A stretch of 64,000 nucleotides of DNA, taken from Curvularia clavata (Eukaryota). Made by a program: the position numbers and the translations under genes. The DNA lies in contig CP089275.1 of the NCBI GenBank assembly GCA_023920165.1, positions 3,658,001 through 3,722,000 on the forward strand, written 5' to 3'. Numbering within the stretch: the first letter of the stretch is position 1; the number at the start of each line of letters is the position of its first letter. Of this stretch, positions 44,673 to 46,848 are shown one piece after another. The notes below the pieces were generated by a model. The model was not told the origin of the DNA and searched no databases. It saw only the letters and a program-made list of their open reading frames with translations.

Positions 44673-45095
44673 AAGAGAGAGAAATATAGAGAGAGAGGGA
44701 GGGAATGATATGAGAAGCCCGAAAACTGGGTGCAGTATTGTAATATAAGCCAAGAGGCGAATGAATGACATGAAGAAATATGTGTATGCTTTCAGGAACG
44801 GATATGAGGCATGGATCCCTTACCGCTTAGTCTGGCATGTCAATTCAGATAGGTTGTTACTATGTATAAGTGATCGCAACTTACCACCTGGACAGGATCT
44901 ATTCTCAATTCATCACTTTGTACTCGTATTATCTGCAAGGCTTGAGGCTTTGGGAGACAGAGTAATCGTGATACATCATCTTTATTCATACATTCACTAA
45001 TGCTACAACCAAGACCATATCAGGCTCAACAAACCAGCATCTGACTTGTGGCATCCAGAGTCGGATAGTGCATGGCATTTCCAGCCAAACAATAT

Positions 45096-46361
45096 CTAGC
45101 CTCCAAGCCTGCGACCAGGTCCCATTGAGTTCCAACTCGAGCCAGTAGTCCTGCCTGTACTAGGCTGTGCACCACTTCCAGGTGCACCAGCTGTCCTTCC
45201 ACGACCCTCGACAACATGACCATATCCCCTGTTCTGAACACCGCCAGGTGTAGGGCTGAACCAACTCTTCACAATCTGAGGCGTACGAATGTAGTTTGTT
45301 CCACCTCCAAACGTAGGCCAGATCCTCGTGAGGAAATCGTACAGATGTGCGGCAATGAGGCCCGTTAATTGCGTGGCAGCTGCGTCAGGACCATCGGTGA
45401 TGAAAGTAAGGAACAGCATGGCGAACGGGAGGTACTTGGCGTCGAAGTTGATTATGAAGAATTGCACGGAGCGCGTGGGGCTGTCCTGAGCAAATGTGTA
45501 CGCGTAGGCGAGAGATAGCGCGGGAAGGAAGGTATACGTATTCAAGATACCGCCTGCTGTTGCCTTGACGTGGACTGTTAGCACAAGCCCATTCAAAGAT
45601 ACATCGACATCAAGTGATTCAAAGCACAACGATTGGTAAAGGTATGTAGGGAGCCCCAAATGACCTTGCGAAATAGAGTATTCGCAACGCATCGGTATGT
45701 GACAATCCCACCATGCCTGCACACCATGCAGCCCCTTTTGGATTGTTGGCGGAGCTGCATGATGCGCAAGGGTATTCTTCCTCGATTCCAGGAACCGCTT
45801 CAGCTAGATCAATTTTTGACTGGGCGGGCAGATATGTCGAGGTGACGGAGACCGAAGTCATGGAGTCGCAGACAGGTGTGTCGATGCGATACGGACAAGT
45901 ACACGGGTGTGCGATGTTGCGGAATAGCTACAGTGGGTACTTACGACAATGACGCTGCCGACGAACACGGTATACATGAAAAAGTCGCCGGGTTGCGAGA
46001 AGCGGCTGGACTCGCGCTCAATGGAGCTGCCGTATTGGTACAGAAAATATGGATCAAGCAGAATGGCGAACTTTGGTTTCGTGATCAGAAACGCAGTAAC
46101 GACACGCCAGAGCTGCGGGAACATCTTGGTCGTGAAGACCAGTTGGCTGGCGAAGACAACATGGTAGAGGCTGATGATGCCGCCGTAGCCCAGGGCTGAC
46201 ACAATAACAGCTGCAGCAGTAATGGTCCTGGAGGCAAATGTAAGCAATTGCTCATGCGCGTCGTTTGAGCAGCCAGGCGCAAGCTGTGAAGCATGCAAGC
46301 AAGGCGAGCGAACAAGTAGAGCTTACCTAGAGACCGGTGGGAGGGTCCAAAAGACATCCAT
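45096..46361 (-). CDS. Derlin (Der1/Dfm1 family ERAD rhomboid pseudoprotease), 3 exons
   Basis: MDVFWTLPPVSR|TITA, PQLWRVVTAF, YLPF, GLIAAHLYDFLTRIWP, C-terminal SHP-like WNSMGPGRRLGG; introns about 46326-46228 and 45944-45563. Confidence 0.9.
45642..45845 (-). ncRNA. Candidate intronic box H/ACA snoRNA in derlin intron 2
   Basis: Hairpin CCUCGA/UCGAGG with internal pocket and CCGC/GCGG upper stem, H box AGAAUA (45778-45773), 20-bp stem 45770-45716, 3' hairpin, ACA at 45647-45645. Confidence 0.55.
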
Positions 46362-46848
46362 CGTTGCTGGAAGCTGTGGCAGCTACAGACAAATGCGACA
46401 GTGAAGGTGTCGTGGGCGAGGAACAGCGAAATGCTGCCTAAAGAACAAGACGAAGCGAATTCGCAAGGTGGCTTTTGAAGGAAGCCGGCGCGTCGTTGGT
46501 GGGGAGGCCTTATGTCAGCCATCCCACCCTGGAAAGAAGCCCGCGTCATTGGCCGACCCGTTCCGCGCCACACCTGTGGAAAGTTCTCGCGGGTTTGTAC
46601 TTTATACGTTACTTTGTAGATTGAATTCTGCATGTGTCAACCATGTTTTTCTGCATAATTCCTGTTCTGGCAAAGGCTATGGAGTTTGTCTAGCAGTGAG
46701 GTCTTGGCCCTATCTGCGAAAAGATCTTTGGAAGATAGCATCCTAGGCCAATAATTGCTTGAACGAATAGTTGATAGACGGCAGATATTGTACAACACTA
46801 ACTTTTCCCTCCCTTCATCACATTGCAGTCTTCCTTTCGGATGTATAC

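Follow-up and report, generated by a model that had tools for sequence, protein, structure and literature searches.

What does the long second intron of a derlin gene in Curvularia clavata carry? The gene lies on the minus strand of a stretch of 64,000 nucleotides (nt) (assembly GCA_023920165.1, contig CP089275.1, positions 3,658,001 to 3,722,000; hereafter the window, with positions counted from its first letter). A preliminary description of this stretch had proposed that the intron hides a box H/ACA-like small nucleolar RNA (snoRNA) with an inserted internal hairpin. Our analysis bears this out: the boxes and pocket strands are conserved, the helices covary, contigs assembled from RNA contain the element, and an ortholog has been cloned from Neurospora crassa. 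The element belongs to a fungal family that is already known, and it had gone unannotated in this genome. We consider it likely that 45844..45642 is a box H/ACA snoRNA of the ACA9/snR43 family, whose first hairpin is a guide for two uridines, U966 (yeast 25S numbering) in the large subunit (LSU) ribosomal RNA (rRNA) and U73 in 5.8S rRNA.

The hairpin-hinge-hairpin-tail architecture of a box H/ACA snoRNA is present, with one additional hairpin between the hinge and the 3' hairpin. The stems, pocket strands, H box, third hairpin and terminal ACA-UAC that had been described were all found as written on the sense strand of 45844..45642. The ends of the mature RNA are predicted by analogy with the 201-nt N. 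crassa complementary DNA (cDNA), in which 2 nt precede the basal stem and 3 nt follow the ACA. The parts of the element, with hairpins and stems as drawn by RNAfold, are as follows.

45844..45642, minus strand: predicted mature H/ACA snoRNA, 203 nt.
45780..45842, minus strand: hairpin 1.
45842..45837 with 45785..45780, minus strand: basal stem of hairpin 1, CCUCGA/UCGAGG.
45836..45828 (CAUAUCUGC) and 45794..45786 (UUCCUGGAA), minus strand: pocket strands of hairpin 1, a 9/9 internal loop.
45827..45795, minus strand: upper stem-loop of hairpin 1, closed by CCGC/GCGG.
45773..45778, minus strand: H box AGAAUA, 1 nt after the hairpin 1 stem.
45710..45772, minus strand: hairpin 2, the internal stem-loop, of about 20 base pairs (bp), several of them G-U, with a CAU bulge of 3 nt.
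45649..45709, minus strand: hairpin 3.
45709..45706 with 45652..45649, minus strand: basal stem of hairpin 3, GGGA/UCCC.
45687..45681 with 45672..45666, minus strand: upper stem of hairpin 3, UUGCGAA/UUCGCAA.
45642..45647, minus strand: ACA box (45647..45645) and the 3-nt tail UAC, following hairpin 3 and one U.

Hairpin 2 is lengthened across its CAU bulge by ACC/GGU pairs, and because several of its pairs are G-U it is specific to the minus strand. The H box starts 16 nt after the first nucleotide of the 3' pocket strand, within the 15-16 nt originally claimed, and the same distance was found in all 45 relatives that bear an H box. The fold energy of the single sequence is only modestly unusual (z = -3.0, with 3 of 200 shuffles equally stable); one sequence therefore proves little, and the case against chance is made by the comparative data.

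The closest published counterpart is N. crassa ACA9, which Table 2 of Liu et al. 2009 (PMC2780460) lists as a 201-nt RNA from a cDNA library and a northern blot, with the entries 'Orphan' and 'Intron'; its sequence (EU780988) is printed in supplement file 2 of that paper. ACA9 and the window were compared by eye, and ACA9 also fits the exact pattern used in the contig scan described below. Both RNAs have the 12-nt block AUAUCUGCCCGC, a gap of 23 nt and the 13-nt block GCGGUUCCUGGAA; their pocket strands and the base of the upper stem are identical, the three hairpins come in the same order, and both are about 200 nt long and intronic. The basal stem is compensated (CCUCGG/CCGAGG in ACA9, CCUCGA/UCGAGG in the window). 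The H box of ACA9, AGAUUA, is followed by ACC just as in the window, and the linker CAUGGUGGGA and the 3' end CCCUACAU are common to the two. Unlike the window, ACA9 has the motif CAUCAUUCGCAA in the loop of hairpin 2, and hairpin 3 pocket strands of the UUUGGAUGA / GUGGUUUUUU type. Judged by these shared blocks, the element is an ortholog of N. crassa ACA9, and what had been described as a hidden snoRNA is no new kind of RNA but the counterpart of one that was already cloned. In the supplements of PMC2780460 we found no name for the host gene of ACA9.

Metagenome contigs were scanned for the window's own two blocks, exact and with a gap of 10-40 nt allowed between them, and 71 loci were recovered. 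With the window's exon peptides as tblastn queries, sequence resembling derlin exon 2, exon 3 or both was found flanking the element, on the same strand, in 68 of the 71 (25-82% protein identity to the window); the others are L011, L030 and the chimeric L056. The host intron is about 330-390 nt in the 16 loci whose alignments reach the exon ends. The best matches to named derlins are Aureobasidium pullulans (100% over 161 residues, L071), Alternaria (87%, L039), Paraphoma (79%) and Fonsecaea (65-71%), and the element together with its host intron is therefore common to several classes of Pezizomycotina. A large group of loci has only 30-48% derlin identity to any named protein in the set, and its snoRNAs resemble N. 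crassa ACA9. Derlin had been thought an unusual host; it is no oddity of one genome, being the host in 68 of 71 related loci. We found no relevant paper on a snoRNA in a derlin intron.

Covariation was measured in an alignment (A1) made with MAFFT of 51 full-length sequences, the window and 50 loci, of which 48 are distinct. Truncated loci, exact duplicates and the chimeras L041 and L056 were left out, and the reference structure was that of L006 folded with its pockets held open. Standard pairs occupy 83.9% of 2374 cells, against 75.0% after column shuffling, and fall to 36.5-49.3% when partners are slid by 1-3 columns. Changes on both sides of a pair were found in 32 of 50 pairs and 284 cells, and none of 500 shuffles reached the observed value on any of five measures. 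Every helix contributes: both sides have changed in 4 of the 6 pairs of the hairpin 1 basal stem, 2 of the 8 pairs of its upper helix (the remaining 6 are invariant), 15 of the 20 pairs of hairpin 2, 2 of the 4 pairs at the base of hairpin 3 and 9 of the 10 in its upper stem. The two covarying pairs in the upper helix of hairpin 1 read CG in 28 and UA in 20 sequences, and UA in 19, CG in 18 and UG in 11.

The basal stem of hairpin 1 was recounted with the invariant blocks as anchors, and all six pairs form in 45 of the 48 distinct sequences. Its innermost pair is UA in 20, AU in 16, CG in 5, GC in 5 and a CA mismatch in 2; the next is GC in 34, GU in 6, CG in 4, AU in 3 and a UC mismatch in 1. 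An ANANNA hinge stands in 45 of the 48, always 16 nt after the first nucleotide of the 3' pocket strand, the other three reading AGAUUG, and the ACA is invariant (48 of 48). The comparison of orthologous derlin introns, which the preliminary description had put forward as a check, thus finds the H box, the ACA and the pocket strands (these last being part of the scan pattern) kept, and covariation in all helices. The structure of the element, its conservation and its linkage to the derlin host are shown by these comparisons.

A competing fold was also noticed. In every sequence of A1, AGGAA from the basal stem and H box is complementary to UUCCU in the 3' pocket strand (columns 52-68; window 45777-45793, minus strand), and a small hairpin formed by the two could compete with the open pocket. 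RNAalifold drew it in place of the basal stem. Because the anchored count supports the basal stem, we attribute its absence from that drawing to a 1-nt misalignment of the 5' ends by MAFFT, and that drawing was rejected.

Sequencing runs X9, X10, X21 and X22 were examined over 45000-46500, and X9 and X10 yielded contigs; X21 and X22 gave none, which is evidence neither way. Twenty runs are listed as containing the 206-nt stretch that was searched for, and X10 alone is on record as RNA. This run, an oligo-dT metatranscriptome, has a 157-nt contig covering 45655-45811 with 0 differences. X9 has a separate 165-nt contig covering 45654-45818, also with 0 differences, as well as a contig of spliced messenger RNA (mRNA) and one of the 3' exon. 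Since the spliced contig joins exons, X9 is RNA-derived and both derlin introns are confirmed; its junctions are 45562/45944 (381 nt skipped) and 46226/46326 (99 nt skipped), on the minus strand with GT..AG ends. Neither snoRNA contig enters the flanking intron. The element is thus present in RNA contigs, which hint at a stable intron-derived RNA in two studies, in agreement with what northern blotting showed for the ortholog in N. crassa. The preliminary description had expected of a genuine snoRNA that its boxes and pockets be conserved, that a stable RNA exist and that the segment be no alternative coding exon. Nothing found goes against that expectation: boxes and pockets are conserved, element-only RNA contigs come from two studies, the intron is spliced out, and read-through of intron 2 meets a stop after 28 codons in the derlin frame.

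The host gene model, established from translations, homologs and the spliced contig, has three exons.

45096..46361, minus strand: host gene, derlin (Der1-like, PF04511), 3 exons, 261 amino acids in the model.
46361..46327, minus strand: exon 1.
46326..46228, minus strand: intron 1, 99 nt.
46227..45945, minus strand: exon 2.
45944..45564, minus strand: intron 2, 381 nt, GTAAGT ... TGCTAAC ... AAG.
45583..45577, minus strand: branch motif TGCTAAC of intron 2, 14 nt before the AAG 3' splice site.
45563..45099, minus strand: exon 3, followed by the stop.

Intron 2 had been put at about 380 nt, in agreement with the 381 nt whose splicing is seen in X9. It leaves 100 nt between the 5' splice site and the start of the snoRNA, and 78 nt between the end of the snoRNA and the 3' splice site; it is several times longer than its neighbour because the snoRNA has been retained there. 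Exon 3 matched 45 Der1-like or derlin proteins (PF04511), the top ones from Pleosporales, with identities of 87% in Stemphylium, 84% in Alternaria and 81% in Pyrenophora.

Two side observations concern the derlin predictions. Those of Pleosporales (P0002-P0023) are 277-382 amino acids long against 261 in the spliced model, in a search limited to proteins of at least 273 amino acids. In some of these models the reading frame may run on into the long intron that holds the snoRNA, or a neighbouring gene may have been joined on, and the snoRNA intron may account for many of the over-long predictions. Two derlins, P0023 and P0025 (Paraphaeosphaeria minitans and Rasamsonia emersonii), are named 'centromere/microtubule-binding protein Cbf5' in GenBank but derlin in UniRef, and PF04511 is present; the GenBank name looks like a propagated misnomer.

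Possible targets of the hairpin 1 pocket were sought in a set of rRNA pieces. The set comprised ascomycete small subunit (SSU), 5.8S and LSU 1-1916 (L109, L113), ascomycete LSU 5' pieces (L075, L079), a yeast-like LSU 5' piece (L092), a 753-nt yeast-like piece near the peptidyl transferase centre (L145), and two complete plant ribosomal DNA (rDNA) units (L133 with L094; L147); the 753-nt piece and the plant units were a partial substitute for the LSU 3' half. An ascomycete LSU 3' half was itself looked for; a scan of viral contigs gave 0 matches and four contaminated assemblies gave only bacterial 23S-like pieces. As an observation in its own right, many prokaryote assemblies (L072-L131, L133, L147) carry contaminating eukaryotic rDNA of ascomycete, yeast-like or plant type.

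The preliminary description had proposed one LSU and one 5.8S segment, and both occur in ascomycete rRNA. The LSU segment, CCCUCAGGA-UA-GCAGU, is present in all three ascomycete LSU pieces and absent from plant LSU. It pairs over 6+4 bp, UCAGGA with UCCUGG of the 3' strand (one G-U pair) and GCAG with CUGC of the 5' strand. The 5.8S segment, GUGAA-UU-GCAGA, pairs over 3+5 bp with no offset. The minimum for pairing between guide and substrate is about 8 bp. Counting GUUUGACCUC, taken as the 25S 5' end, as position 1 in L092 puts the uridines of CCCU and GGAU at 960 and 966. Published site lists give 25S-960 to snR8, and 25S-966 and 5.8S-73 to snR43 (PMC5699541, PMC8307265). In yeast numbering the LSU segment is thus U966 and the 5.8S segment U73, and both are identical to the published snR43 sites. 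At the threshold used, the pocket has five matches among the 914 uridines of ascomycete SSU, 5.8S and LSU 1-1916, and two of these are the snR43 sites; the chance that two of five would be the two sites of a single yeast snoRNA is about 2.4e-5, a figure calculated post hoc.

Other candidates fared less well. With at least 4 contiguous bp on both sides and no offset, just one site was found, in an internal transcribed spacer. SSU U986 pairs with hairpin 1 over 13 bp with one mismatch per arm, which is within the shuffled range, and was rejected. When the host pre-mRNA was searched, neither the 71 loci nor the window's gene showed a recurrent site.

The pocket in the window is complementary to both sites of yeast snR43, 25S U966 and 5.8S U73. 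On the right arm the LSU of Pezizomycotina reads GCAGU where that of yeast reads GCAGA, giving four pairs instead of five. Decatur and Schnare are said to have noted in 2008 that snR43 addresses the two sites with a single guide element and that its internal stem-loop, atypical for yeast snoRNAs, is conserved. This stem-loop would correspond to hairpin 2 of the window. Yeast snR43 is an independently transcribed gene and not intronic.

The link between ACA9 and snR43 comes from a survey of fungal snoRNAs. The text of Canzler et al. 2018 (PMC5824354) has the phrases 'AJ632018 (HACA_9)' and 'AJ632018 matches snR43', and reports S. pombe AJ632018 as conserved outside Taphrinomycotina. Its families HACA_2, HACA_3 (snR3) and HACA_6 (snR8) correspond to N. 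crassa ACA2, ACA3 (snR3 homolog) and ACA6 (snR8 homolog) (PMC5824354, PMC2780460). Since families numbered 20 or lower seem to have been called after their N. crassa counterparts, HACA_9 would be the ACA9 family, and the survey then appears to place that family with yeast snR43 (PMC5824354). When 20 related loci were searched with Rfam, the only H/ACA family matched was S_pombe_snR100 (RF01449), the rest being microRNA-type noise; it covers the snoRNA of L011/L013 over its full length at 18.7 bits and E = 2.2, which is not significant. AJ632018 may possibly be snR100, a guess from the order of accessions; if it is, the weak match of L011/L013 would fit.

Two further RNAs invite comparison. Vertebrate SNORA9 (ACA9) is listed as the counterpart of snR43, acting with 5+5 nt of its 5' hairpin on the equivalent 28S site, 28S-1618 in chicken (PMC2653536). 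Like the window's element it is intron-encoded; unlike it, SNORA9 is about 130 nt long, with two hairpins, no internal stem-loop and another host, and its second hairpin is listed as guiding a different 28S site (PMC2653536). The 'H/ACA snoRNA intronic' (#04) described by Gao, Jones and Rivas 2021 (PMC8216456) likewise occurs throughout Pezizomycotina in one host intron. It is a different RNA, given there with a 'vacuolar sorting protein' gene as host and SSU-743/744 as proposed target, and the SSU tested offers the pocket of the window no site with at least 4 bp on each side.

We infer processing, protein binding and pseudouridylation along the following lines. Once intron 2 has been spliced out, debranching and exonuclease trimming, the usual route for intronic snoRNAs, would free the snoRNA of about 203 nt, while the H/ACA proteins (Cbf5, Nop10, Nhp2 and Gar1) would protect it from being trimmed away. 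Hairpin 1 would be the guide, with AUAUCUGC and UUCCUGGAA flanking one uridine in LSU helix 37 (yeast 25S U966), and the same strands would flank one uridine of 5.8S (yeast U73) with fewer pairs. Cbf5, the H/ACA pseudouridine synthase, would then convert both uridines to pseudouridine. Hairpin 2 would be a family-specific internal stem-loop. Hairpin 3 in the window, which bears the ACA box and lacks a canonical pocket, probably serves only in assembly and stability of the ribonucleoprotein.

Several points weigh against this interpretation. The homology with snR43 rests on the text of PMC5824354 and not on a comparison of sequences, the equation of HACA_9 with ACA9 comes from the numbering, and Rfam has no snR43 match for the window. 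Rfam 15 gave no match at the gathering score over the whole window, and at E values up to 10 over 45400-46100 only mir-885 (E = 0.6) and a Streptococcus small RNA (E = 8.7); the Rfam check named in the preliminary description therefore returned no H/ACA family. The organism's own rRNA was replaced by ascomycete rDNA that contaminates prokaryote assemblies, delimited with Rfam, and ascomycete LSU beyond about 2300 was searched only in the 753-nt piece. The LSU match holds only if one guide nucleotide at the top of the pocket, the uppermost U of the 3' strand, is left unpaired, and scans that forced pairing at both pocket tops gave nothing above shuffles for hairpin 1. In shuffled rRNA the best score was at least 10 in 372 of 500 cases, a 10-bp match being the commonest best score, and the 8-bp match to 5.8S is weaker still than the 10-bp match to LSU. 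Under the rules of Liu et al. 2009, as given in their paper, ACA9 has no complementarity to rRNA, small nuclear RNA (snRNA) or transfer RNA (tRNA) (PMC2780460). The pocket strands were part of the scan pattern, so that the 71 loci necessarily agree in them and N. crassa ACA9 is the sole independent witness. Finally, the RNA contigs give neither the ends of the RNA nor its level, and for that reason they are a hint of a stable RNA and not proof.

Much of this would fit a genuine H/ACA snoRNA of the ACA9 family that acts on another substrate (an snRNA, a noncoding RNA or an mRNA) or modifies nothing, the fit to U966 and U73 being coincidental. At neither site does the base-pair count exceed what shuffled rRNA gives, the discoverers classed ACA9 as an orphan in their table (PMC2780460), and the target scans covered proxy rRNA, with snRNA, tRNA and the genome's own rRNA outside their scope. 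Against this, the two best-fitting known sites are the very pair assigned to one yeast snoRNA, the 2018 survey, in the passages cited above, appears to group the family with snR43 (PMC5824354), and all 45 sequences that bear an H box have it 16 nt from the pocket top. We regard another substrate as rather unlikely. That 68 of 71 loci have the element in this one derlin intron, and that its structure is strongly conserved, would also suit a cis-acting intronic element that regulates splicing or expression of derlin and gives rise to no stable trans-acting RNA. That the N. crassa ortholog is a discrete 201-nt RNA by cDNA cloning and northern blot, that two RNA runs have element-only contigs beside spliced mRNA from which the element is missing, and that the H and ACA boxes are conserved at their canonical places make such a role very improbable in place of a snoRNA; it may exist alongside one.

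The stem of hairpin 2, at about 20 bp, and the hairpin-type match to mir-885 (18.4 bits, E = 0.6, far under the gathering score of 66) could be read as a microRNA-like precursor to which the H/ACA features are secondary. In that stem, pairing is conserved and sequence is not, 15 of 20 pairs having changed on both sides, which fits a structural element and leaves a microRNA-like precursor with hardly more than a slight chance of being right. Chance hairpins in a long intron would be in keeping with a single-sequence fold at z = -3.0; with 71 loci, covariation in every helix, invariant boxes and a cloned ortholog, this last explanation is already refuted. The snoRNA of the ACA9/snR43 family with hairpin 1 as guide is thus the reading we prefer.

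Within that family the window's copy is particular in its second and third hairpins. The motif UCAUUCGC, retained in the hairpin 2 loop of at least 90% of relatives, is missing from its own. Most relatives also have a canonical pocket in hairpin 3. In one clade of relatives this is a pocket of UUGAGAAA and GGU(U/G)UUGGC, 14 nt from the ACA, and in the clade resembling N. crassa a pocket of AUGGAUG(A) and GGUUUU, 15-17 nt from the ACA. The pocket strands of hairpin 3 in the window are unlike those of its relatives; no stem of at least 5 bp ends 13-17 nt before the ACA, and the spacing, counted manually, is 17-18 nt. The X9 and X10 contigs, which reach to 45654 and 45655, confirm the letters of the window for most of hairpins 2 and 3. 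The same double loss, of the loop motif and of the hairpin 3 pocket strands, was found in L004, and the first pocket of the window is intact. With loop motif and hairpin 3 pocket lost, only hairpin 1 looks like a guide in the window's genome.

Possible partners of the two hairpins were sought in rRNA. The hairpin 3 consensus of the first of these clades has its best fit at SSU U1244, with 16 bp, and 8 of 100 shuffles were as good; the hairpin 3 strands of the N. crassa-like clade, of L006 and of the window showed no rRNA fit above shuffles. Among 36 distinct members, 22 have a hairpin 2 loop whose best fold with the SSU lies at 1220-1260, and the consensus loop binds SSU at -17.8 kcal/mol, with 25 of 300 shuffles as good; this fit is weakened both by the G/U-richness of SSU 1220-1260 and by the shared ancestry of the loops. 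Binding of the loop to 5.8S (-8.1 kcal/mol, 515 of 1000 shuffled loops as good) was rejected. It is conceivable, if quite improbable, that in most Pezizomycotina the snoRNA has a second job on SSU, with the hairpin 3 pocket (UUGAGAAA / GGUUUUGGC) at U1244 (L109 numbering) and the loop CAUCAUUCGCAA at 1220-1260, and that the lineages of the window and of L004 lost both and kept the first pocket. Were this so, the window's lineage would be a natural loss-of-one-function variant.

The analysis adds to this genome an unannotated snoRNA gene that Rfam 15 does not detect. The 2018 survey reports no H/ACA snoRNA at all in Pyrenophora tritici-repentis, of the same order as the nearest derlin relatives of the window (PMC5824354). 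A guide, probably of the snR43 type, has remained in the same derlin intron through several classes of filamentous ascomycetes, and an RNA first published as an orphan would gain a concrete target assignment, in LSU helix 37 and 5.8S. The understanding of how H/ACA guides work is unchanged by this, and the conserved derlin host and the degenerate hairpins 2 and 3 are minor twists.

Three contigs of the metagenome set deserve a remark. L056 is chimeric, matching the snoRNA as far as the 5' strand of hairpin 3, beyond which it turns into a diverged 5.8S-like sequence, and L041, also chimeric, departs from the snoRNA after CAUGGUGGG; both are probably assembly artefacts. In L006 a palindromic hairpin (1435-1543) lies downstream of derlin; both of its strands match mir-3524 in Rfam, with 29-31 bits where the gathering score is 99, and it is probably a mere inverted repeat.

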